A stretch of DNA of 63,610 nt, filler included, from Rhabdomonas costata (GCA_019059605.1; 54 parts of 54 records of this genome joined end to end with filler, not necessarily neighbours in it), one strand, 5' to 3'. Positions 3,719 to 56,674 are shown, numbered from the whole stretch's first letter. Notes: generated from the letters alone by a model not told the origin. Made by a program: numbers and translations.

Positions 3719-4179
3719 TTAAAATACCTGTAAAAAGGGTTGTCTGAGCAACTCCTCGCAGGATGGTCGATGCTCAGGATCCTTTTTTAGACACAACCTC
3801 AAAAGGTCCATCAGCTCCGGCACATTAGGGCATTCCTCCGGGGAGGGAAGCAATTCCTCTGTTGAAATCTGGCCGAGAGTCACCTTGCTGACGCACAGGC
3901 ACATCTCAACCGTGGTAGAAGCATGACGGTAGGGCCTCGGGGGAAGTCCTGTAAGCAGGACGAACAGAGTGATGCCAAGGCTCCAGATGTCATAGCTGGG
4001 CGAGGGCTCGCGCATGCCCGCCTCAGGAGGAAGAAAGTAGGGGGTGCCCAACCCATGGCAGGAATTCAGGGAAGAGGTGGGCTGCGTGGCCTGAGCTAGC
4101 CCAAAGTCCACGAGCTTCACAGTACCATCCTCGGCTAGCATAATATTGGAAGGCTTCAGGTCGCGATGGATCAAGCCCG
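3719..4179 (-). CDS. Ser/Thr protein kinase, C-terminal lobe exon
   Basis: HRDLKPSN, DFG, GTPYFLPPE, DIWSLG and subdomain XI (DPEHRP); pyrimidine tract plus CAG acceptor at 4180-4182. Confidence 0.95.
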
Positions 4180-4728
4180 CTGTGAGAGAGAGCGGCAGCC
4201 AATTTGAAGACATCGAATTAGAAAAAGAGAGCTTCCTACTTGTTAAGTGGGTACAAGACCAGCGACAGCCAATCCGAAGATACACCCATTTGTTTCGTTC
4301 GGCAGGCAAGCATGCTAACCGAAACCCAGCTCATACCACAGAAAAGGGGGTGGGTGTTCAGAAAACGTCTAATGGCGGTTAAACATTCGACATCCCTACA
4401 CCCACCACATCCCAAATGCGGCACATATAGTGAGGCTGTAATGTCAACAAGGAAACTGAAATGATGAGAGCTTCCCACCCCTCATGTGTACATGGAGAAG
4501 GGGACTCAGAGAATTGAACAACGGCTGCACAAGATACGCCATGGTTCAAGCCCCAACCGAGTGCTGGGTGAGGGATCAGGTTCGAATAATGAGAACAGCA
4601 CCTAAATTTCGGCTTGTAAAGCGGGTGANNNNNNNNNNNNNNNNNNNNNNNNNNNNNNNNNNNNNNNNNNNNTTAATTAATTAANNNNNNNNNNNNNNNN
4701 NNNNNNNNNNNNNNNNNNNNNNNNNNNN

Positions 4729-5686
4729 GTGTTGGTGTGTTTGGTGTGGGTGTTGGAGTGGGTGTTGGTGTGGGTGTCGGTGATGCAGTGGCTGTGGGGG
4801 TGAGAGTTGGAGTAAACGACGGCGTCGAAGTAGGAGAAGAGGAAGGTGTTGACGACGGAGAAGACGTGGGAGTGTTCGTGAATGTGGGCGTTGGTGTGGG
4901 TGTGGAGGAAGGGGTGCATGTGGGTGTGGAGCTGGGCGAAAGCGTTGGTGAAAATGTTGGCGACGCAGTTGGTGTGTCACTCGGGGTTGAGGTGGGACTG
5001 GTTGTGGGTGTGAAGGAAGGTGTCGCTGTGGGTGTAGAGCTGGGAGTGAACGTCGGTGTGGGTGTAAAAGTAGGTGTGTGCGTCGGTGTAATTGTGGGCG
5101 AAGCAGTCGGGGTACTGCTGGGCGAGGCACTTGGCGACAAGGTGGGAGTAGAGGTGGGAGTGGAGGTCGGACTAGATGTAGGCGTAGCCGAGGGTGACAT
5201 TGTGGGAGTTGAAGTGGGTGTTAATGAAGGCGTTGATGTGGGTGTGGGTGTCGATGTTGGAGTGGATGTGGGTGTACAAGTGGGAGAAGTCGTAGGTGTG
5301 CTGGTAGGTGTCAAGGTGGGCGATGAAGTTGGTGAAGAGGAGGGGGTACTGCTTGGCGTCGAGCTAGGACTGGCCGATGGCGTAGCGCTGGGGGTCATCG
5401 AAGGTGACGGTGTCGGAGTTGGAGTGATGGTCGGAGTGAATGTGGGCGTTGACGTGGGTGTGCCGGTGGGAGTCTCTGTAGGAGTGCTGCTGGGTGTAGA
5501 AGTCGGGGTGGTGGTTGGGCTTGCCGTGGGGGTGGAAGTCGGAGTCGAGCTGGGAGAAGATGTCGGGGATGAGGTGAGGGTAGGGGTTGGAGTGGGGCTG
5601 CTACTTGGGGTCGAGGTTGGCGTTTGGCTTGGAGAGGAGGTGGGTGTGAAGGTGGGAGTTGACGAAGGCGAGTAGGTGGGGGTAGA
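4729..5686 (-). CDS. Thr/Pro/Ser-rich (mucin/extensin-like) repeat exon, partial
   Basis: About 320 codons of TPT/SPS/TPS repeats with varied synonymous codons, which argues for coding rather than a simple DNA repeat. Confidence 0.7.
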
Positions 5687-6160
5687 CTTTTCTCAGCCAT
5701 CATCTTGAGTCTTAAGTCTCGCGACTGCTTGGCACTCTGATCGTAAAGCACCTTATGTCCCTAACTAGGCACCTGCTGGCCCCCATAATCCACAGGGGAA
5801 GTCCTGGTNNNNNNNNNNNNNNNNNNNNNNNNNNNNNNNNNNNNNNNNNNNNTTAATTAATTAANNNNNNNNNNNNNNNNNNNNNNNNNNNNNNNNNNNN
5901 NNNNNNNNTGTAGGGGAGGTGGGGCTGGAGAAGGGGGTGAAGGGAGGGTGTTTCAGTGCGCTGGGCGAAATTGCTTGCTGTCAAGTTTTTGCTGTGGAAT
6001 CATTGTATGCCAAATGTGCTGAGCTGTAGTACGTGTCCAAATTATGTGTGGATGAGTTGTTACGTTATCCGAGGCTCAGGAGCGATTTCCCACAGTGCCC
6101 TGAGGCTTGGTAAGGCTTGTGGGGTGTTATCTGGTCTGCTTTTGGTGTGGCGGTGGGAAG

Positions 6161-11809: not shown

Positions 11810-12390
11810 GGTGTTGGTGGGCGCCCGGTCACGCCGCAGTTCCAGCGGTTCCCATTGTTTATGAAGTGCGTCGGGACGGAGACCCCCACCAACGCGGAGA
11901 TCGCCATTTCATCATAGGAGAGAAAATCCTCCAAGGGCAGGTTGGAGTCCTCCCCACTGTCTTTCCCGATTAGCTCAAACCCGCCGAACCCAGACTTGCC
12001 CTTTTTGGTGAGGTACTGGTCCGAGCCTCCCAGGAAGGTCAACGGCCGGTTTTGAAGAATCCGGTCGAAGAACGCCTCCACCGAGGCGATGGTGCTGAAG
12101 AAGCGCTTTTCCTTCTCAGTACCGTGAGCTTTCTTGATGGACAAAAATGCCTCGGCCAGTTGTTTGACGTCAGCGGAGGCAATCGGGCGGGTTTTCTGAG
12201 CGTGGGCGAGAATCTCCTCCTGGACTGCAACGTCGCGGCCAACTTCGAACATTCTGTTGTTGGAGGTGGGAAATCGGCATATGGTCTTGTGAAACTTGTC
12301 CGACAGGTCTACTAAAGTTGAGAAGGAGATTGTGTCGCCACCAGCCGCCGGCTTTGGCTTTGAAGTCGAGTTCACGACGTCAGTTGACAT
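11810..12390 (-). CDS. MavL-like / DUF4804 family protein, 5' part
   Basis: K-x-x-HGT-x-x-EK, RPLTF, D-x-YL, GGFE-x-IG and LSYDEM-x-ISAL-x-x-VS-x-x-T-x-FIN-x-G-x-R-x-N-x-G motifs; pyrimidine tract and AG upstream of the ATG. Confidence 0.8.
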
Positions 12391-14484
12391 GCAAGAGCAC
12401 ATCAAGGGGATAGAAAAGAAATATAAGCTGAGAAATCGAAGAAGAAGTGTGGGGCCCAACCACAACCAGCATTATGACCGCACTCTGAAACCCACTCAAC
12501 TCGCATTGAGGCGGTCCTAAAATCCTCCCAAATGTTTGGGATAACCCCTGTCACTCCTCATTTCAACCCCTCGCTGTCGTTGGTGATCGTAGTTGGCCGA
12601 ATGCTTCGAAACTTTGAGGGAAGCGGAAATGGATGGCGATAGATAAACGCAGATGAAGCCTGCGCTATGGAAACCGGTTCCAGCATTATTTTCCGTGGCT
12701 AAATTCATTTTCGGTCAGTCTGCAACGTAAACCGCAGCCCATTGTGCTCACACTGCAATTTCTTTTTGCACCAGTAAGAACCTCTCCAGAAAGACTTTCA
12801 GCCCCTAAAACAGCCTGAAAGAAGATTGATAAGGTGAAGTGTTTTGAAGTTTAATAGATTAATTGTTCTCAAAAGTTCCGGTGCCCCTTNNNNNNNNNNN
12901 NNNNNNNNNNNNNNNNNNNNNNNNNNNNNNNNNTTAATTAATTAANNNNNNNNNNNNNNNNNNNNNNNNNNNNNNNNNNNNNNNNNNNNCCGAAGCCGGC
13001 GGACACGCTCTCTCCGTTCCTGCGCGATTTTTTTTTTTAACAAAAAACGTACCGAATTCTGATCCAGCAATAGTAGTGTGCATTTCTTCCCATATTACAA
13101 GCCCTGCCCAGAAGTAGTGCTGGAAAAATCGAACAAACATGCATTTAACCTGCCTTACTTCCAGAAGGGCGCAGTCCAGCCGAGACGATCAGGAGGTACA
13201 AGTTCGATCCTCAGTCAATCCAAACTCAACGAGTCAATGATCGCATCAATTCATGTGGGTTTCTGTTTACCCGGAAAGCAATTCTGGTCGAGCGGAGTTA
13301 ATTCAGGCGCTTGTGGGGCTTGCACAGTATTTGGTGTGCCCTCCCCTCCTCAATGAAAACCGAAATGACCTTGGTCGGAGGATCTGCGGAGGAATCTGGA
13401 GCAGAGATGGGGACGTCCCGAGTGAAAACGGGCGCCCTGCTGCATCGCAGGCGGGACTTCATTTCAAAAAAGAGAATTCATGAAAGAAACAAATGGAGCA
13501 CATCTGCGTGGCGTGGCAGGTGAAAAATGCCCACATGTTAGGAAGAAAGCAACCATTGGAGTCTAGCGGTGCATCTTTGATGAGTGGCAGAACATAGAAT
13601 CATGTCAAAACGAAGACCATGGTCAGCAGTCAATCATAAATATCCTCGTGTCCGGATGTCGGGACCCGTATCGGGAACTCACCAGCTTGTCTTCAAAATT
13701 CTCTTCACAGAAATTCATGGGTCGGATACTTTCACAGAGCACAATGTCGTCAGACAGAAGCAGCATAAAAAAAAACAGGCAAATTAAAGTCTCCCAAAAG
13801 AGCCCACCCCCAGCACAAAAGCTGCATGACCAGTCCACACCGCCATTAGAGACAAAGTGAACCACACTTTGCGGCAAAAGAGGACGGCAGTCACACGCCC
13901 CGGCAGCGCTGCGCTGCGGAGGTTACAATGAAAGCCCCAAATAGCAAACAGTACAATGGGATCAAGGAACACGCCAGAGCCAGAAGGAAAGAAACAGGGA
14001 GCAGGCAAATGCCCTGGAAAGCCAGGCCCACAATGCGAGAATGGCGAATCCTCAAATGCCCCAAAAAANNNNNNNNNNNNNNNNNNNNNNNNNNNNNNNN
14101 NNNNNNNNNNNNTTAATTAATTAANNNNNNNNNNNNNNNNNNNNNNNNNNNNNNNNNNNNNNNNNNNNCTGCCATGCCGGTTTGTATGCGCGTGTGCACG
14201 CCATTGAGGTTTCCCAAGAACCTCCGCCCAGCAGAGGGGTGATCCGTACCCAGAGAGAAGCGGCTAGGCAGCAAGGAGTTTAGTAAGAGAAAGTTTGAAA
14301 GCCCGCTGGAAGCTGCAAACCAAAACCATGCCTTGTGCATGAAGTGTGTGTGTGTGTGTGTGTGCCTGCGTTTGTATGCGCGCGCGCCAAGCCACACGGC
14401 CAGACAGGTTTGGCGCAAGGTTTTGAAAAATTCCATGCATTCCACGTACCGCTATTAGGAGCTCAGGAACTCGTGTTTCTGCAG

Positions 14485-25672: not shown

Positions 25673-26292
25673 GCATTCTCACCATCTCGCGAAAGTCCTG
25701 CACGCGCTGCTCTCACGCTCCCAATAAATTTCAGAGCCTTCCCAGATCACGCGAACAATCGCCCCGATCGCTAGGGAGTGCTTAGCAAACCCATCGCCTT
25801 CCTCTTCAGATTCTTCCTCTTGTCCTTTAGCATCTCATCATCGCTGCTCATTCACACACCCACCCCCNNNNNNNNNNNNNNNNNNNNNNNNNNNNNNNNN
25901 NNNNNNNNNNNTTAATTAATTAANNNNNNNNNNNNNNNNNNNNNNNNNNNNNNNNNNNNNNNNNNNNTGTGTGGTGGGAATGGGCGAGGCGAGGCCAGAT
26001 GCCGCTGCTATTTCGTTGCTGATGCTGTTGAGGTGTACGTTCACAAGTCGGAAAGTTGGAAGCGCGGGTGTGTGTACAACATGCATTTGTCAATAATTGT
26101 ATGTTTCCATTTTCCCCTTCAGCTTGCCCCTCTTCCCTGTTCCTATCCCTGTTTCTATTGGCCGCACCGTTGCAGACATTCGTTAATCTCTGCGCCCTAA
26201 TCAGGACCCTTACTACACCCTTGTTTGTTACTCGCTGGTGATTTCCTCCACCAGGCCATCTCGTGTTCTGTGGAACTTCCCGTTTTTTTACG

Positions 26293-26593
26293 ATGACTGA
26301 TCCTCACGCCTCCAGCAGCAGCAGCAGTGATCTCAGGGGGCCCGCAGGTGGTGGTGAGGACTCTCCTGGGGCCGTGGATGTTCACCAGCTGTTCGTGTAC
26401 TACGATGGACTGTACTTCGGGGGCCAGCTGGTGGCCCATGGGGTGTGCGTGCGGTGGAGCAGCGCTCGAATGACGCTGTGCGCAGGACTGTGCCAGTACC
26501 GCGGCGCGGCAGGGGGCTGTGAGATCACTCTGAGCGAGCCCCTGCTAAGGTACCGTAGCGTGGGGGAGCTGAAGGAGACTCTCCCTGCACGAG
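26293..26593 (+). CDS. SPRTN: SprT/Spartan-like metalloprotease exon 1, with a +1 frameshift before HExxH
   Basis: DVHQLF-x-x-YD-x-LYF-x-G-x-L, V-x-WS-x-x-RMTLCAGLC, I-x-LSEPLL-x-x-R and LKETL(+C)LHE|GTATGC. Confidence 0.88.
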
Positions 26594-27579
26594 GTATGCG
26601 GATGCGCAGCTTGATGTGACTTTCCGGGCTTCCGGTGTTTTGTGTATGCCTTGGTGAATTGAATGAGTGGACCCAAGGGGGAAAGGGTTGTTTTCAAGTT
26701 GCACGTCAGGTGCATATTTTTCGTCGAAACACCGCAGGCTTCGTATCTGCCGGGCGTTGGCCGCTGAAAACTCCACCGGGTAACGAATCTTCATTGCCAC
26801 TGCTGAGCTCGGGTCACATACCCAGCTAAAGCCGAGCTTCGGCAAGAATCGAGGAAATCCACCACTTCGGTGGTGAGCCAGAATCACAACAGAATCGCAG
26901 CTTGTAAGCACCCCCTTTAACCTTTGTTTTTAATATTTCCAGACGTTTTCGTTGAGTGGGAGTCAGAGTAATAATTTACGGTATTCATAGGAAGCTGTCA
27001 TGGATGGTGAGCAGATTGCATATATTCTTGTCTTCTCACACCAAAAANNNNNNNNNNNNNNNNNNNNNNNNNNNNNNNNNNNNNNNNNNNNTTAATTAAT
27101 TAANNNNNNNNNNNNNNNNNNNNNNNNNNNNNNNNNNNNNNNNNNNNCGGCACCACAATTTTCGATATTTGGTCGTGCCACGCCGTACTGCGAGCAAAAT
27201 AAGAGAAGATTGAGACCGTGAAACCATTCCGCCTCTGACGTCCGAATCATTCATCGCAATCTTCTCCAGCTGCCTCGCCCCTGCTCCACTGTGTGCGTAC
27301 TGCATCGATGCAGTCGATGCAGTAGGTCTCTGGTGGTTCTTCTTCTGCCTTCTCTCTTGCCTGCTCTTGTGAGATGCGTGCACGCCCGTAGGGTGTGCTG
27401 GCCAGTTTGGCGCAGCACCGCATATGGGACATCCTTAGATCTTTTGCACCCTCTGCCCCAGAAACCACACCTCAGCGTGTGTTTGTGTGAGACTGTGCCT
27501 GTGCATACATCCTATCTATGGCCCCCCAGTGTACGGGTGCGTGGTGAGACCTGCCGAAACAGACGCACACGGCGCATAC

Positions 27580-27681: not shown

Positions 27682-29721
27682 CTGTGGCAGACCCAAGGGA
27701 GAGGAAGAGGGAGAGAAAGAGAGCCTGTGTTGGCGGACGCCCTTTTGGGCGACGCTGTGTGAAGAGTTGGGCTAAAAAAGGCGTTCGATTGCTTATTGCA
27801 ATCAAAAAGAAGAGTGCTGCGACCGCCACCAACAGAAATCTCGCACAGTGGCACTTGCCACACAAGGGGATCACGGAATGCTTCGCAATGTGATCGTACC
27901 CGGCACGTATTGGTCGAAGGTAAATCTTCTACAGAACCTTTCAGATCCAGCATGTCTGGTTGGGTCAGAGCAAATGCGTCTTAGACTGCCGAATTCCGAA
28001 GTTAAGGTTCGTGCGAGAACAGGCAGAATAGAAGGAAAGAAAGAAGAGGCGAGTTAAAAATACACGGAGAAGGATGCGGGAGATAGCAGCAGTGATAGTA
28101 GCCTCGTAGCTCACCCCACACAGCGGGTGGTAGCGACCACAACAAATCAATTTAGGTCGCCATAACATTCCGAAATAGTGTTTGGTTGACAATAAGCAAA
28201 GGCTGTCAAACTGCATGAATGAATTTTNNNNNNNNNNNNNNNNNNNNNNNNNNNNNNNNNNNNNNNNNNNNTTAATTAATTAANNNNNNNNNNNNNNNNN
28301 NNNNNNNNNNNNNNNNNNNNNNNNNNNGTGGGGTTTGAGGCAGCTGTGTAATCACCTGTAGTGCCCGTGAGTGATGTAAAGCGTTGCAAGGGTGTCGTAT
28401 TTCGTCAGCTGATTTCAAGGACACACCATACCCGTCCCCGTCGGTTTGACGCAAAACAGAGTCCAAAGAGGGACGCCCAACCGTATTCATACGCCCCGCC
28501 AGCTAATCCCCGCCCCACTAAATAGTGGTACCAAGATGCGGCGTAGCCTCAAACGAAGGCATACACACTTCGTGTAGAAAAGCTGTGGCTGACCATGTGT
28601 GAAACGATATTAAAGGCATGCCCGCAGAAGCAGGATAAGAGAGCATTCAATAAACACCGGGGGGGGGAACCCATCAAACCAGAGTTTGAGTCCCACACGC
28701 GCACCTCGGTAGAACGCACTGACGCAGTTCACCCAACTGCTCTGCCGTGGATGCTGGTTCTCCTTGCCGCCCTCGTTGTTTGCAAAAGAGTACAGCCACT
28801 CCCCTGCAGGGCCCACCACACCCGTTGCGCATCGTAGCAAGACACTATCTTTTCGCTCTTCGCCAAACCCTTCCCGCTGCAATATATATACTCACAATTC
28901 ACTCCGCAGCATCCACACAGCCTCACCGCTGCATCAGAAAAGACGACCGGAGGATATTCTAGCCCCACCCTAGGTGTTAGCCAACCTGAAAAAAAGGAGG
29001 GCACGGTGTCTGTTTTTGGGCTATTGCTGGTGTTAGCTCGACTCCGAAGAAAGAGCAGCACGATGACTACACCCACTTTTGTACACTCACGAAGGAAATT
29101 ATACTCACCACCCCTTCCGTCTCCCCTAAACTCGCACCATCACGCCCCACCTCTTCTCTGTCCCTCTGTGGCTCGTTGGCTGATGCCACTTCCTCTTATA
29201 GCACGGGGAAAACCCTCGTGGCTAATGGTACACGGGGATGCAACCCCTCTCTCCGCGCTCGTACACGCCGGAAACCTGCCGTTCCCTGTTCCGGCCGAGC
29301 ACACCCACGCATACCGTCGAAGTCCGTCCTTGCGGCAGAGGCCGAGGGCACCAGCTCGAAAACCCGCCCGAACTGCAGTGCAGCCTCCGCGTTGTACACC
29401 ACAACACNNNNNNNNNNNNNNNNNNNNNNNNNNNNNNNNNNNNNNNNNNNNTTAATTAATTAANNNNNNNNNNNNNNNNNNNNNNNNNNNNNNNNNNNNN
29501 NNNNNNNGGGTGTGGGGAAACTGGGGAGCAAAACTGCCCTAAAACTGCCTTTCAGAGCCCAATTTTTGCCTTTTTTTGGGTGTAAATTGGTGTTAACAAC
29601 GCTCTGGCGGTGCTTTTTCTGACTCTACGACCCCGAAAACTGGGGGGTAGGTCCCCTTGTCCGGCCTAGCTGCCCGTGTCACGCGATTTGATTCTGGCCC
29701 CCGCGCGCGGTTCTCTTTCAG

Positions 29722-30583
29722 GGTAGTGAGTATGCGGTGTGTGCGGTCTGGCTTGTGGCTGGGATATACCTGCTGATACTGCCGCCCCACTGCGGGGTTG
29801 TGGCCTGGGCGCACGCTCGGCTGGTGTGGGTGCTGGAGGTTTGTGGGGGGACCACGGCGAGGGAGACCTCTTCGCCGGCGTCGAGGAACCGCGGGAAGCC
29901 CGACGTCACCGGAGGTTTAATGCCGTTTTCTTTGGAGGTCATGGCAACACCACATGGCTTCCTGAATACCTGCTAAGAGTCTTTGATTAGTTTGCTCGAC
30001 TATTGAAAGTTCAGCTTGCTCAGGTTGACTCACTTGAAGTGGAAGGTGAGCGTAGCAAGTGGACATTTTCTGGGTTGCCATCCCTGAGCCGGCAATCGAG
30101 TATACTTGGAATCTTCAAAGCCCGTATCCCCGTGCGGGCTGCTCAGGACAACTACACGAAAGGAAGGTTGTTGGAGTCTACAGAACGGGTGTCCTCAGCG
30201 ATTCACGGGTGCTACTTTTCCGATTTACTTCATTTTCTTTATTTTCTTCATTTTCTTCACCTTTCAATATTCACCTCCCCTTGTGGTTGCGCCCCTTTTG
30301 ATATGGGGCGGGACTTCGGATAAACTGCATCCGCCAGGACGTTCACCACAATATACCCACAAAAGTCGCCTTCCTTTTCGTGATCACGGCTGCAGGGCCT
30401 CCCGACCACGTGCGGTACAACATGATCCTTTCCTTCTTCTTCTGCATTGTCACGGAGATCGTGCTGACATTCTACGTGGGGTTGGTCGACTGGGAGAGCA
30501 TCGTGGGCCACAGCTGCAAGGTGATGTCCTTCTACCTCATCTACAAGGCCCTGGTGCGGGCAACGCTGTCCGAGCCCTACACC
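29722..30583 (+). CDS. MASE3-like membrane sensor domain; exons from 29722 and from 30396
   Basis: GSEYAVCAVWLVAGIYLL and ILSFFFCIVTEIVLTFYVGLVDWESIVGHSCKVMSFYLIYKALVRATLSEPY match the MASE3 SEY, SE-x-x-FT-x-Y, GH-x-x-K and Y-x-A ... L-x-x-PY motifs. Confidence 0.75.
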
Positions 30584-30688
30584 CCCANNNNNNNNNNNNN
30601 NNNNNNNNNNNNNNNNNNNNNNNNNNNNNNNTTAATTAATTAANNNNNNNNNNNNNNNNNNNNNNNNNNNNNNNNNNNNNNNNNNNNT

Positions 30689-31263
30689 TTGGTGAGTGAG
30701 TGAGATGGAGGGGTTAGAGTTGAAGGTTTCGCTTCGGTCTTCACTCTTCGGTCTTTGCATTCGGGGTTCGGGGTTCTGCATTTAGGGAGTATGCGAGACA
30801 AGTAGTGACGAGTATACGACCAGCACAAACTTGGGGGCCCCACGAATGCACATGAGTGGGGTATATGCAGGTATGATGCATTTAAGATACCCCTACATGC
30901 ATCTCTCATATCGGCATTCTTTCACCCGCAGGTCATGCGTAGTAAGTGCATGTATCACATACCCCTATCTCATCTCTTCAGCATCTTTTTCATCCAAATA
31001 TTTGCTCGGAACCCTGAATTCTGAGGGTATGCATCCCACATCGGGGTATCATGACCACCCCTCATCCCCATCATGCATTTTGCTCAAGGCTGGTGGGGTT
31101 GTTCTTTGGCACGGGAGGATACATCTTTTGGATCACTCATTTCTTAGGAAGCGTTTCTGGCGGTTGGGTTTTGGCATCCAGGGTTGGGGTTCCGTGAGTC
31201 GATTGTGTGATTGGTGAGTGAGTGAGATGGAGGGGTTAGAGTTGAAGGTTTCGCTTCGGTCTT
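30689..31263 (+). repeat. 53-bp direct repeat pair (30689-30741 and 31211-31263)
   Basis: TTGGTGAGTGAGTGAGATGGAGGGGTTAGAGTTGAAGGTTTCGCTTCGGTCTT occurs twice. Confidence 0.9.
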
Positions 31264-33602
31264 TGGTTTGGGTTTTGGTTTCTGCCTTCGCCTTCGCTCT
31301 CCGCATCGGTTTCTATGACGTCCCTCGGGATGTCCAAGCTTTCTTCAAGCAGATGGAACAACGTACGCCGTGAGCAATGACAGATGATGATGAAAACGAC
31401 CTCGACATGAACGGAATAGGCAGGCTGGAATCCAGACGCCCCCACATGAGGATCGACAGGAAGGCCAGGATGACCAGGCCACCGGATCCGCTTCGACGGC
31501 AACGCTTGATGAACGCACTGTCTCAACATACACTACGAACAGCGATAAGCAGTGAGATGCGACTAAGTGGGACGGGCCCATGGTGTCAGTTCATCTGTTT
31601 CGTGTGAGTTATGCGTTTAAGTGGGACGAGCCCATGGTAACAGTAACGCACGATAGCGCCAGTGGTTCGATGGCTATAAACTACCACTGGTTGACACACA
31701 CATGCGGAGTACCACGATGGGTATATGCCACGTTGGGAAACCGGTGATGTCAGGAGTCGCCTAGTCCNNNNNNNNNNNNNNNNNNNNNNNNNNNNNNNNN
31801 NNNNNNNNNNNTTAATTAATTAANNNNNNNNNNNNNNNNNNNNNNNNNNNNNNNNNNNNNNNNNNNNAAGTTCAGGTGTGACGTCACCCCTCTTCGTGCT
31901 GACTCCCTTTTGCGTCCGTTTCCTATAATCTGGCATTCGTCCGGATGAGCAGTTTTCTCATTTCCCCACGATTCCCATGAGTCGCTCGCTGTCCATCCTG
32001 TCTCTTTCACCTGGTTTCCTGCTTAATTCATGTGAGTGAGTGTGTGAGTGAGTGAGTGAGTGATTAGGCTCTCCTCTGACTCTGTCACCTTTTTCTTGAT
32101 AACTTGCTCTTCTTCTTTTTTTCTTCTAACTTCCGCTCCTTTTTTTGTTCAGCGTTCGTGCTTTGGCCGCCAGGCGAATTACCTGCTTCCAACACATTTC
32201 GGTTGTTGCTTTAGTGGAGAACACGCCTCCGTGGAAGCTGCCAGTGAACGCGAAGCAGGCCAAGTTGGCCAAGCCGCAGCTCTTCCCTTTGCACGACCGA
32301 GCTTTCAGCCGGAGGTTGTGAGCGGGAGAGAACAAACATCTCAAAAAGCCCAACTTACGCGAAGGTCGCGCTTTCACGAATCCTTGCGCCCAAGCTGTGT
32401 TGAGTTTTTTTTAAAGTTAGGAGTCGGCTTCTGGTGGGGTCAGGGTGCTGTTGCGCACAAACATGTTCAAACTTATCTACTGTTCCAGCCACCCAAACCA
32501 AAAGCCGTTGCCTCCCCCCTTTCCGTACCTTCTGCGCTTTGCCGCCCTGCTTCATTCTTCATTACTGCCTGCAGCCTATGCTCTCTGTAATGTGCCAAAC
32601 CCGTCTTGCTTCTTTCGTGTCTCAGCTATGAAGGTTTGCGGGAGCTTCTTTCTGAGCAAAACATCAACCAGCAAGATGATGCGGGTTTGTATCGTGTTCC
32701 TTTGTGCGAGTTTTAAGTATTCATGTGACAGGTTTGGGTTTTGCTTCGCCGAGCGAGAGTATTTTTACAGCGAGGGTATGCCTTCCCTCAGAAACCAAGG
32801 CTCCTAAGTTGTCCTAAGGTCTAATAAAGGCGCTGTGCTCGAACTTCGATGTCTACAAACCGTTTTTGTTGCGCCTGAAACATCTAAAGTCAACAGCGAA
32901 GACATGCCTCAGAACCCGACGTAATGGAAACCATTCACCACACAACCNNNNNNNNNNNNNNNNNNNNNNNNNNNNNNNNNNNNNNNNNNNNTTAATTAAT
33001 TAANNNNNNNNNNNNNNNNNNNNNNNNNNNNNNNNNNNNNNNNNNNNTACAAATACTGGGAGCAATTGATGGTTTGTGTGTCAGGGTGCATAGTGTGTTT
33101 GATGCGCATGAACGTTACAACTGCAGCCATAGAATTACCTTTCCGGACAGCAGAAAACGACACACTGCGGTCTGAGGCTGGCGAGAAGAAGGATGACGGA
33201 GGATGACGTGCAATGATCCCGGGGCATTCTCGCAATTTCCTTTGGCTTCTTCTAAGAATCGATCTCGAAGCCCCGCTTGGAGCCTTTAGGGCTTGCCGCT
33301 GTGGCAGCCTTAGACAGCTGACACAGTGGCAAAGTTGACACACAGTTGGGTGTTCATTCTTCCAAGATATGTGCATGTGCATGTGCATGCCAGCCCAACT
33401 TAGCTATGCAATGGGAAGGGTGGGGAAACGAAGAAAGGAAGAGCATTCTGAAAGGGCCCCTGCCTCACGGAAGATCGGACACGCCGCGGAGGGATTTCCC
33501 TGGCATCTTCCTCCTTGAGCCAGCCTGCACACACAGCCATGTGAGAGTGCGGCAGTGGGCGTGTGAGGTGGGGTGAGGTGGGTGCGGATGTGAGGGGAAT
33601 AC

Positions 33603-33787
33603 AGATTGCGATCAGGAGCTTCTCCTCGAGGATCTCCGCGGTTGGGTACTGCGGCAGCTTGAGGTAGTGGAAGCACGTGTTGCAGGTCGGGAGATAGCAC
33701 TCCGGGGCGGTGTCGTGGGCGGGGTCCCCGCCCCCCACGTCCCGCCGCACCACAGTAAGCTTCGGGGACAGCCCCGACAGAGGCATC
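33603..33787 (-). CDS. HECT E3 ubiquitin ligase C-lobe exon (TRIP12/UFD4/UPL3-like)
   Basis: GLSPKLTVVRR ... YLPTCNTCFHYLKLPQYPTAEILEEKLLIAI contains the catalytic Cys. Confidence 0.92.
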
Positions 33788-35092
33788 CTGTGTGTGTGTG
33801 TGTATGTGTGGAGGATGAGATCAGTGAGAGATAGAGAGCGGGCACCCAGATGATATCGAGAAAGCCAAGCACAAACACAACACTAAACACTCCCCGAACC
33901 AACAACATCGCCAACACCAGATCCAAGAACCCATGACGCAACCCCAGCAGCCAGCACCAACACACAGACCGTAACACCAGACGTACCGACAACAACACAA
34001 CCACCAACCAGCCCACCAACACCACAACAAGCAGCTAAGACAACAACAGTCATGACAACACTACGCGGACAGCCCTAACACTGACACTGACACCAACAGC
34101 ACAAACGCAGACACTGCCAACCACGGCNNNNNNNNNNNNNNNNNNNNNNNNNNNNNNNNNNNNNNNNNNNNTTAATTAATTAANNNNNNNNNNNNNNNNN
34201 NNNNNNNNNNNNNNNNNNNNNNNNNNNGAAAGCCTGGGTCCTGCCTCAGTGTGCGATACTCACGGATGCCATTGCCTGCACTCCTTCTGATGATCTTTGT
34301 TCAGTTTCCGCAGAATGCACGCCTGTGAGAGTAATATGTATGTAGTGCGAGCGAGTGCGAAGGCGCCAAGGCGCTTTGCGTGTGCCCAGATACCGACACG
34401 CACTGGTTGAGGCTTGCCACGCACGGGGTGTAGCCCGCCCGTGGACTAGCCCCCCGCAGAGACATTCCATGGCCAGGTGGGCTCGGGGTGGCCGCGGTGT
34501 ACAGGGATCGCCCGACGTCCACAAATAAGGGGCTGGGCGTCACCGGGGCAGGCGAGCACGACAGCCGCGAGCCCCAGATGGAGCCCCCCTCTGGAGAGCC
34601 GACCCGTAGGGTGGGCTCGTTGTAGCTGTACCGAGCCTGTCCCACACACAAGCACCACTCTGCCGCTAACGCACTTTCTGCCCAATCGCAGCGGAAAAGG
34701 ACTGGAGTTTTTTAGGGGGCCCTTGCTTTACACAAATTCTAAATCACGCTTCAGCTGCTGCTCCTGCGGAAGTCAGACAGCCACTGCCCCCGGTCATTTC
34801 ACCCGGGCCGGTCTGCAAATCGGGAGAACTAATTTACACCGATAAAAATCAGAGAAGGGCGGCCCGCAAAAAGCGGTCACTTGTCTCTTCGGCCGCACCA
34901 TGGGGGTTCACTAATTCAAGATCAGTGGTGCTTCAAAGCACGAAGCTCACTAAGAAGGGAAGACCTGCTCACCCACGTTGCGGGGTAGCCGCTCTTTTCA
35001 CCCTTGCAAAAAACAACCCTTACAAACGGGGTCAACAATTTTGTCGAAAAAAATTAGCCGTCTGCTATCGCAAGCCATTAAGATCACTGTTG

Positions 35093-55609: not shown

Positions 55610-56497
55610 ATTTTGGGCTTGCCAACCTGCAGAACAAGAACGAGTTTCTGAAGACCGTCTGTGGAACCCCTAATTACGTCGGTGTGCCGCTCAGCCCCTC
55701 CGCCGCTCAGCTGGCTCTTGTGTGATGGTGTAGTCGCGCAGTATAGGAGGGACAGCTGTATTTGGGGATCGGGGAGACTTTTAATGTCGAACGCCGGTGA
55801 GCATACGTGGACTTTATTATACAACTGGGACAGACGACGTTTTGAGGGGAGGCCAGTCCGTGAGAAGCGGGCGTATGAGCCCGGGACCTCGCATGGCATT
55901 GGGGTAACAGAACAGGCCGAAAAGGGCAGAAACACCTCCAGGTCAAAACCAGACTTTTCACCACTTCCTTTTGGCTTCGAAAGCCCCAAAATATGCATGA
56001 TTTAGAGTGCACTCTTCTGGGGAGTTCCGCTTTGCGGTGACACGGACGGTATATCCGTGGCCGTTCAGGTGAACGAATGGAAAGAACTTTGATGAAGTTT
56101 GGTCCATTTATGGTGTTAATCGTTTCAAGATGAGAAGATGAGAGTTTAAGGCACCCCACCCCCTACAATGAATATCAATGCCTTCCTCGCACAGCCGCTA
56201 ACGAGATGAGCTCTTGTGAATATCAATGCCTTCCTCGCACAGCCGCTAACGAGATGAGCTCTTGGACCCACACCTCTGCACATCCGCTCCGCTCACGCGC
56301 ATGCTCTTTCATGTCCTCAGCTCCGGAGGTGCTGAAGCAGACAGAGTATGACGGGTTCAAGTCCGACCTGTGGTCGTGCGGGGTGATGCTGTACGTTATG
56401 CTGGCGGGGCGCCTGCCGTTCTACCAGAAGCAGCTCCCCGAGCTCGTCGCGAAGATCAAGGCTGCGGACTACAAGATGCCTGACACCATCCAGCCAG
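55610..56497 (+). CDS. CAMK-group (SNF1/CIPK-like) kinase; exons 55610-55681 and 56321-56497
   Basis: DFGLAN ... LKTVCGTPNYVA|PEVL ... YDG-x-KSDLWSCGVMLYVMLAG-x-LPF. Confidence 0.95.
56169..56264 (+). repeat. Perfect 48-bp tandem duplication inside an intron
   Basis: 56169-56216 is identical to 56217-56264. Confidence 0.95.
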
Positions 56498-56674
56498 GCA
56501 CCTCCCAACCTCACCCCCCACCCCAAACACACCCACACNNNNNNNNNNNNNNNNNNNNNNNNNNNNNNNNNNNNNNNNNNNNTTAATTAATTAANNNNNN
56601 NNNNNNNNNNNNNNNNNNNNNNNNNNNNNNNNNNNNNNGGTGTGTGTGCGTGGGAGTGTGTAGGGGGGATGCAC

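Follow-up and report, generated by a model that had tools for sequence, protein, structure and literature searches.

Judged by the protein they would encode, two exons on a contig of Rhabdomonas costata (GCA_019059605.1) represent the final third of a membrane sensor of the bacterial MASE3 type. MASE3 sensors are widespread in prokaryotes, and we know of no ligand for them. We regard the locus as a real intron-bearing gene fragment, probably of a bacterial-derived MASE3 hybrid histidine kinase. It appears likely to us that the whole picture holds, namely that these are two internal exons of a euglenid nuclear gene, presumably expressed, for a polytopic MASE3 membrane sensor with kinase output and of bacterial origin.

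The window, i.e. the whole stretch of 63,610 nucleotides that was analysed, consists of 54 separate contigs of 1076-1087 bp each, joined by N runs around the linker TTAATTAATTAA. The MASE3 fragment lies wholly within the contig at 29508-30587, and physical linkage exists only inside that piece. The other pieces of the window are unlinked contigs and thus carry no information on the MASE3 gene, which also removes them as the clue to a cyclase for which the sequence-only reading had taken them. Two open segments are found on the plus strand in different frames, both directly preceded by CAG (Table 1). The contig ends two codons past the EPY motif, and the output domain of the window copy lies off the contig. 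Rfam gave no match in the entire window, and a Pfam search of the contig's stop-to-stop ORFs of at least 20 aa, exon B excepted, returned just UTP6_C and C1-like_CT, both below threshold and attributed to chance.

Table 1. Features of the MASE3 contig and the favoured exon-intron model (positions counted from the first letter of the window)
Feature	Position	Strand	Description
3' part of upstream intron (predicted)	29508..29721	+	non-coding; pyrimidine run and CAG at end
CAG 5' of exon A	29719-29721	+	
exon A, 193 nt in favoured model	29722..29914	+	G-SEY, MASE3 membrane helix 6, start of cytoplasmic loop insertion
SEY	29725-29733	+	
intron, 481 nt, GT...AG, favoured model	29915..30395	+	with tandem repeat (9 nt x 4) at 30223-30259
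CAG 5' of exon B	30393-30395	+	
exon B, at least 192 nt	30396..30587	+	cut by contig end; loop end, MASE3 helices 7 and 8, terminal EPY
TEIVLTFY	30452-30475	+	
GH	30506-30511	+	
SFYLIYKALVRATLSEPY	ending 30580	+	

The assignment to MASE3 rests on a profile match for one exon and on homology for the other. Exon B (81-aa cut) matched the Pfam MASE3 profile PF17159 with 56.1 bits (E 5.3e-15; gathering cut-off 31 bits) at profile positions 158-226 of 226, and the 95-aa ORF at 30302-30586 on the plus strand matched it with 55.5 bits (E 7.8e-15). The NCBIfam model NF047874 (MASE3_PAS_HK) reached E 1.1e-10 on the exon B segment, far under its whole-protein cut-off, as expected of a fragment. Exon A by itself (upstream ORF 29692-29973) gave no Pfam match at E<=10, so that the Pfam check suggested for the two exons succeeds for exon B and fails for exon A alone. 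Compared with a local HMM of 95 prokaryotic MASE3 rows, which are a subset of the relatives retrieved in the searches, exon A scored 2.8 bits at profile positions 144-160, which is the right place and not significant, and 29 of 200 constructs in which exon A was shuffled scored at least as high as the real spliced product. Exon A is regarded as MASE3 because it is homologous to a euglenid protein, P0001, and not because of its own profile score.

P0001 (EukProt Rhabdomonas costata RCo043423, 462 aa) was the one protein found in the search with exon B. In a tblastn search of the window, its residues 210-275 aligned to 29725-29919 with 29 of 67 positions identical (43%, E 1e-8) and its residues 276-336 to 30401-30583 with 47 of 61 identical (77%, E 6e-26). 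The two segments are collinear on P0001, and the part of P0001 that corresponds to exon A falls within the region matched by Pfam MASE3 in P0001 itself. P0001 matched none of the other contigs, nor anything upstream of exon A within the contig at 29508-30587. The sequence-only reading, which had described two AG-preceded exons with consecutive MASE3-like motifs in the correct order, is borne out on all these points. The share of MASE3 held by the contig corresponds to profile positions ~144-226 of 226, and the whole domain is present in P0001. Kyte-Doolittle values of at least 1.6 in 19-residue windows were obtained at residues 1-30 and 70-97 of the spliced product, with the hydrophobic stretch of exon A at residues 4-26; the third helix of the window part, which is amphipathic, does not reach the hydropathy threshold. 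The equivalents of these three helices in the structure model of P0001 are helices 205-227, 277-298 and 306-331.

A HMMER search with P0001 against 1.84 billion representatives gave as best matches P0121 (E 4e-88), which is R. costata RCo017388, and P0122 (E 1e-65), identified by exact look-up as the Peranema trichophorum transcript NODE_362. With a profile of P0001, P0121 and P0122, two further proteins were found: P0272 (R. costata RCo053378) and P0187, a 381-aa ORF on a 3775-bp ENA contig that is 87% identical to P0272. By Pfam, P0122 and P0272 have the architecture MASE3-HisKA-HATPase_c-Response_reg, P0121 has MASE3-HisKA-HATPase_c followed by a receiver-like tail, and P0001 and P0187 are truncated after MASE3-HisKA. 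HisKA thus follows MASE3 in all five euglenid relatives, HATPase_c is present in all three longer ones, and a Pfam receiver in two of these three. P0122 and P0272 contain canonical H, N, G1 and G2 boxes as well as the receiver residues, and P0001 contains the H-box. In P0121, the phospho-accepting His is replaced by Asn (SNEIRAP at the H-box), and some members of the family may accordingly lack kinase function. With these relatives at hand, a histidine kinase is the best guess for the output of the window copy. The spliced window product shares 59.5% of its residues with P0001 (126 aa) and 52.5% with P0121; its identity to the 95 prokaryotic MASE3 rows does not exceed 41.2%. The window copy could be either a paralogue of P0001 or an orthologue from another species.

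Among the 120 relatives listed for the MASE3 region of P0001, only P0001 itself comes from EukProt, and among the 120 listed for the three-protein profile only P0122 and P0272 do, the query members P0001 and P0121 not being listed there. The source was checked for 18 of the 150 listed HMMER matches of P0001, of which two were EukProt proteins (P0121 and P0122) and 16 came from NCBI, ENA, JGI or Logan contigs. No other eukaryote with MASE3 was found among the matches listed, which are otherwise prokaryotic and drawn from thousands of prokaryotic MASE3 proteins. When P0001 was compared with metagenome contigs, 23 loci were obtained; all of them matched the HisKA part only (query residues 322-462, 34-52% identity) and none was euglenid-like.

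The two exons span 15 columns with at least 90% conservation among the 95 prokaryotic rows, and the window copy is identical at 12 of them. The retained residues comprise E and Y of SEY, E..T.Y, GH..K, F, Y and A of SFYLIYKA, and P of PY; the three changes of near-invariant residues are I to V, F to L and N to S. These changes would fit a decaying or non-catalytic paralogue, i.e. a pseudogene or a P0121-like pseudo-kinase that was kept or is drifting after duplication, and so would the fact that no more than two exons can be seen, the residue after EPYT (P in the window copy; C, Y or V in the five euglenid relatives) and the loss of the H-box histidine in the paralogue P0121. Furthermore, the window protein was not found in a collection of 5.8 billion clusters at 143-2000 aa, whereas P0001 was. 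We nevertheless consider decay unlikely, as both exons are open, 12 of the 15 key residues are kept and the GC3 of the coding sequence is 0.85, not lower than the 0.61-0.70 of five other Pfam-positive ORFs of the window. The terminal branch of the window copy in the tree described below is 0.15 compared with 0.47 for P0001, which speaks against relaxed constraint.

We now return to the reading as an intact, split gene. The spacer of ~480 nt between the coding segments is closed in every frame (8, 3 and 3 stops), and a read-through from exon A meets a stop at codon 85. The GC content of the spacer is 0.478 compared with 0.63 for the exons (0.67 for exon A). A stop-filled, lower-GC spacer with GT-AG ends supports the claim of an intron-containing gene. 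Twenty frame-keeping GT/GC-AG pairs exist, with introns of 394-553 nt, and the exact junction among them is probably that of the favoured model, 29915-30395. Its donor G/GTTTAA (29914/29915) and acceptor CTTCCTTTTCGTGATCACGGCTGCAG/GG (30395/30396) would join to a Gly codon. This pair is favoured because it yields a loop of 37 aa (38 aa in P0001), has the best pyrimidine tract (0.65) and gives the exons a coding-like GC3, which is 0.74 at 29722-29838, 0.84 at 29839-29914, 0.92 in exon B and 0.58 on the intron side. An alternative splice pair is 29838/29839 with 30337/30338.

Upstream of exon A, the predicted acceptor is GGTTCTCTTTCAG/G at 29709-29722. An AG at 29725-29726 might serve as acceptor instead. 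The residues L-T-x-F-K, found ahead of SEY in every one of the five euglenid proteins and at 91-100% in the 95 prokaryotic rows, are missing from the read-through of the window and must therefore belong to an exon beyond the contig. On this evidence the gene would be split by at least two introns. Spliceosomal-type features are present: the ends are GT...AG, there is a pyrimidine tract, and the junction keeps the frame. The genes of R. costata are described in the available text of the study of this organism as intron-rich, with fully mapped introns being GT/AG (PMC8219788), and a conventional intron is thus to be expected in this group. A non-conventional euglenid intron with paired ends was also considered; the sole inverted repeat near the ends, of 14 nt and 79% complementary (29818-29831/30355-30368), was treated as chance.

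In the careful IQ-TREE analysis of the MASE3 columns (72 rows x 229 columns, unrooted), the six euglenid rows form one group among prokaryotic MASE3 (UFBoot 100 / SH-aLRT 98). Within this group, the window copy pairs with P0001 (100/86), this pair is joined by P0121 (100/98), and P0122 from Peranema forms a second clade with P0272 and P0187 (100/100). Quick trees likewise placed the euglenid rows on one side, with SH-aLRT values of 90 (101 rows) and 92 (72 rows). The stems of the euglenid clades are long (0.9 and 1.35), the bootstrap correlation of 0.972 is not fully converged, and the union of the two clades could partly reflect long-branch attraction. No prokaryotic sister or donor was supported in any of the trees, quick or careful. 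Desulfococcaceae and Magnetomorum, which provide the best-scoring full-length bacterial matches, fall in a clade apart from the euglenids. The proposed origin of the gene is thus supported as far as its eukaryotic, euglenid nature is concerned, with R. costata and Peranema trichophorum EukProt proteins as nearest relatives, and the comparison with prokaryotic MASE3 yields a single euglenid group, albeit without a supported donor.

Two independent characters that the euglenid sequences share support the same group. Of the 385 stored proteins, five contain the motif SEY-x-[IV]-C-x-x-W and each of these is euglenid; the window copy also has the W. The distance from SEY to E..T.Y equals 38 aa in 290 of these 385 proteins, as opposed to 51, 74 and 81 aa in those three euglenid proteins whose distance was measured correctly and ~80 aa in the window model. 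The four-domain order of the euglenid proteins is also found in Desulfococcaceae proteins, with 33% identity over 94% of the length, which speaks for the transfer of a whole gene. The ORF of P0187 is unbroken through the entire MASE3 region. The introns of the window copy are thus not common to all members, which fits a later gain of introns. Most likely, and as the simplest reading, an early euglenid would have acquired the entire MASE3-kinase gene from a bacterium, after which the gene would have been duplicated into two clades and have gained spliceosomal introns and the loop insertion. We infer the direction of the transfer from the distribution of the family, the tree being unrooted. According to the available text of PMC8219788, 12% of the robustly placed R. 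costata proteins branch with prokaryotes.

The AlphaFold2 model of P0001 (64 aligned sequences; mean pLDDT 85.3, pTM 0.73) contains eight long helices at residues 32-65, 67-91, 99-120, 135-157, 165-189, 205-227, 277-298 and 306-331. An unbroken helix at 334-390 with His372 comes after helix 8 and connects to the second DHp helix. The insertion of P0001 is modelled as a short helix at 234-250 and a segment at 253-271 with a pLDDT below 50. Given the eight-helix topology with a cytoplasmic kinase, the insertion loop is predicted to be cytoplasmic. In 77 prokaryotic proteins with MASE3 linked directly to HisKA, the distance from the Tyr of PY to the phospho-accepting His is 30 residues in 12 proteins, 37 in 47, 44 in 5, 51 in 7, 58 in 2, 65 in 3 and 94 in 1, and 76 of the 77 distances thus equal 30+7n. 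The euglenid proteins have 37 residues (P0001 and P0121) or 44 residues (P0122, P0272 and P0187). A rigid coiled-coil transmission helix would be expected to show heptad steps of this kind.

We propose that the window exons supply helix 6 with SEY, then a loop on the cytoplasmic side that is enlarged by ~40 lineage-specific residues, and finally helices 7 and 8 up to EPY. If the window copy resembles its closest relatives, the last membrane helix would run as a continuous coiled coil into HisKA with its phospho-accepting His, and downstream of HisKA an ATP-binding HATPase_c domain and a receiver would complete a hybrid histidine kinase. A signal in or at the membrane might be sensed by the helix bundle and passed along the rigid helix, where it would switch autophosphorylation and phosphorelay.

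Structural comparison yielded an additional lead. In VIA-align, the GPCR fold could be superposed on helices 2-8 of the P0001 model, with 8jmt_A as best match (Z 15.0, rmsd 4.1 A, 217 residues, model residues 64-336), although helical bundles can reach Z ~14 through arrangement alone. The 50 top VIA-align entries comprise 48 GPCRs and two designed GPCR-like folds. In Foldseek, 47 of the 50 listed rows were GPCRs, with weak E-values of 5.5e-3 or worse, and the model gave no match in the PDB at E<=0.001. The euglenid model differs from GPCRs by an identity of 4-13%, an extra N-terminal helix and an output through a kinase helix instead of a G-protein interface. We therefore take the likeness as a structural lead suggested by the model and claim no homology. 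A sequence search of the PDB with P0272 gave 60 listed matches, all of which start at residue 297 or later and hence concern the kinase part only, with none on MASE3.

A different output for the window copy, namely a class III nucleotidyl cyclase as in the sequence-only reading, or GGDEF or HD-GYP, appears very unlikely to us. The contig stops short of the output domain, and prokaryotic MASE3 proteins are listed with GGDEF (PF00990), HD-GYP and SpoIIE-type phosphatase. However, all five euglenid relatives run from PY into HisKA at heptad-exact spacing, and the window copy is the sister of one of these HisKA proteins, P0001. PF00211 (Guanylate_cyc) is absent from all five euglenid relatives and from each of the two sets of 120 listed MASE3 relatives. 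No cyclase domain was found in the 290 window ORFs of at least 77 aa that were scanned (out of 506 ORFs of at least 60 aa), which are in any case unlinked to the gene. The idea of a wiring to a class III cyclase is thus not supported, notwithstanding the large class III cyclase families that are described for euglenids in the available text of PMC6366073.

It is scarcely credible that the contig derives from contaminating bacteria or from a chimeric assembly, with the intron as an artefact: MASE3 is otherwise prokaryotic among the matches listed, and the contig is short and stems from a very fragmented assembly, but its nearest relatives are euglenid transcript-derived proteins with 52-60% identity as opposed to at most 41% for the 95 prokaryotic rows, the euglenid-only W and the loop insertion are present in the contig, the two halves lie in different frames ~480 nt apart, the spacer between them having GT-AG ends and a markedly lower GC content, and sigma-70-like promoters (1) and terminators (1) show no excess over the shuffle means of 0.3 and 1.9.

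Among known systems, prokaryotic MASE3 hybrid kinases such as the Desulfococcaceae proteins P0273 and P0274 or those described by NF047874 share with the euglenid proteins SEY, E..T.Y, GH..K, SFYLIYKA and PY, the domain order of the full-length relatives and the heptad-quantised spacing from PY to His. They are unlike them in sequence (33% identity over the whole length, at most 41% in the window part), in the lack of the euglenid loop insertion of 13-43 aa between helices 6 and 7, and in that the window gene would have at least two introns. All scores against NF047874 are below its cut-off of 560, the best being 300.7 for P0272. The EukProt proteins RCo043423, RCo017388, RCo053378 and NODE_362 belong to the same family and tree group as the window copy and have the loop insertion and the W after SEY; even the sister RCo043423, however, is no closer than the identity given above. 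These four proteins are transcript-derived predictions, and no mention of them was found in the literature searched.

In the available text of a survey of histidine kinases across eukaryotes, Euglenozoa are represented by Leishmania and Trypanosoma (T. brucei) only, with 0 kinases (PMC6324907). The same text reports kinases with MASE1 from early land plants and from Ectocarpus, and none with MASE3 (Kabbara et al. 2018, PMC6324907). In these MASE1 kinases, too, a prokaryote-type polytopic sensor heads a eukaryotic histidine kinase; they differ from the euglenid proteins in the sensor family and in their hosts, i.e. early land plants and, for virus-derived genes, Ectocarpus (PMC6324907). In the available text of the R. 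costata study (PMC8219788), 'histidine kinase' and 'two-component' occur 0 times each, and the available texts of PMC7052976, PMC10463195 and PMC6366073 contain nothing on euglenid histidine kinases. No description of a eukaryotic MASE3 was found in the literature searched, where the papers using the term 'MASE3' are not about the domain. The claim of novelty thus holds for the literature searched, which describes no eukaryotic MASE3 receptor, and does not hold for the sequences, the family being already present in public EukProt proteomes. As far as our searches reach, the kind of protein is already known, the host lineage is new and the family is undescribed.

In conclusion, an intron-bearing eukaryotic copy of MASE3 would mean that euglenids domesticated an entire bacterial sensor kinase, which diversified afterwards. 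The gene family, with three members in R. costata, one in Peranema, the window copy and one on an ENA contig, is of interest to work on environmental sensing in free-living euglenids and provides a candidate two-component pathway for Euglenozoa, where the trypanosomatids of the survey, in its available text, had none (PMC6324907). The spacing of 30+7n from PY to His and, according to the model, the GPCR-like arrangement of helices may be general features of MASE3 that are testable in bacteria. Going further, we speculate, while giving this extended reading a little less than an even chance, that the bacterial-derived MASE3 hybrid kinases form an old family spread over the whole euglenid lineage. 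They would fall into two paralogue clades, one of which, being common to Peranema and Rhabdomonas, would predate the split of the two, and would have gained their introns and the disordered cytoplasmic loop since the transfer. This loop would lie at the position of the third intracellular loop of GPCRs and is perhaps a docking site for eukaryotic partners. If this is true, Euglenozoa, of which the sampled trypanosomatids have none, would gain their first recognised two-component sensors.

The linker helix that joins MASE3 to the kinase module obeys a strict heptad rule between the PY motif and the phospho-histidine. In a set of 82 MASE3-HisKA proteins, 77 of them prokaryotic and five euglenid, the phospho-histidine lies 30+7n residues from the tyrosine of the PY motif that ends MASE3; this spacing holds in 76 of the 77 prokaryotic sequences and in all five euglenid ones. 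The phospho-accepting site itself is altered in P0121 (R. costata RCo017388), which is closely paralogous to the gene in the window. Its residues 245-251 read SNEIRAP, whereas the others have SHEIRTP or SHELRTP. Because the phospho-accepting histidine is thus exchanged for asparagine, P0121 may be a pseudo-kinase.

In the AlphaFold2 model me1fb2e61c847 of P0001 (RCo043423, the closest relative of the window gene; residues 60-339), MASE3 helices 2-8 superpose best on the seven-helix bundles of GPCRs, and the best 50 structural matches were all GPCRs or designed GPCR-like folds. The top GPCR superposition (Z 15.0, rmsd 4.1 Å over 217 residues) is near the level that helical bundles attain through their arrangement alone.

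The window (1-63610) consists of 54 distinct contigs of 1076-1087 bp each, joined by runs of N flanking the linker TTAATTAATTAA. The contigs are merely concatenated, and therefore the neighbourhood of the pieces is without meaning. Gene fragments on other contigs than that of the MASE3 gene encode kinase, HECT and SprT-like domains (see table). These are ordinary eukaryotic genes, consistent with a eukaryotic nuclear assembly. The MavL-like ADP-ribosylhydrolase family takes its name from a bacterial effector; judged by its Pfam match, the frame assigned to it could be a further bacterial-type gene in this eukaryote, or else could mark a contaminant contig.

Other coding fragments and repeats in the window
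Feature	Position	Strand	Remark
Protein kinase domain	3722-4330	-	gene fragment
Protein kinase domain	56134-56538	+	gene fragment
HECT ubiquitin ligase C-terminus	33403-33882	-	gene fragment
SprT-like domain	26242-26616	+	gene fragment
MavL-like ADP-ribosylhydrolase (PF16062)	11812-12471	-	220-aa open frame; Pfam E 4.4e-29, profile 9-157/448
Opposed open frames	contig 4729-5808	both	321 aa (-), 314 aa (+)
53-nt perfect direct repeat	30689-30741, 31211-31263		spacing 522 nt
34-nt repeat pair	31557-31644		same contig as 53-nt repeat

A Pfam search of the two opposed frames gave no match. Their contig shows the window-wide peak of GC skew (0.417, in bin 4001-6000) and looks like biased or repetitive sequence. 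The direct repeat lies on the contig following that of the MASE3 gene, its first copy beginning one base in from the left end.

P0187, a 381-aa ORF on a 3775-bp ENA contig, shares 87% identity with R. costata RCo053378 (P0272). It carries the whole MASE3 region without interruption and departs from RCo053378 directly after ...VVINDL, where the divergence probably reflects an intron. P0187 is a genomic trace, from an independent assembly, of the second euglenid clade, to which P0272 and P0122 of Peranema trichophorum also belong.
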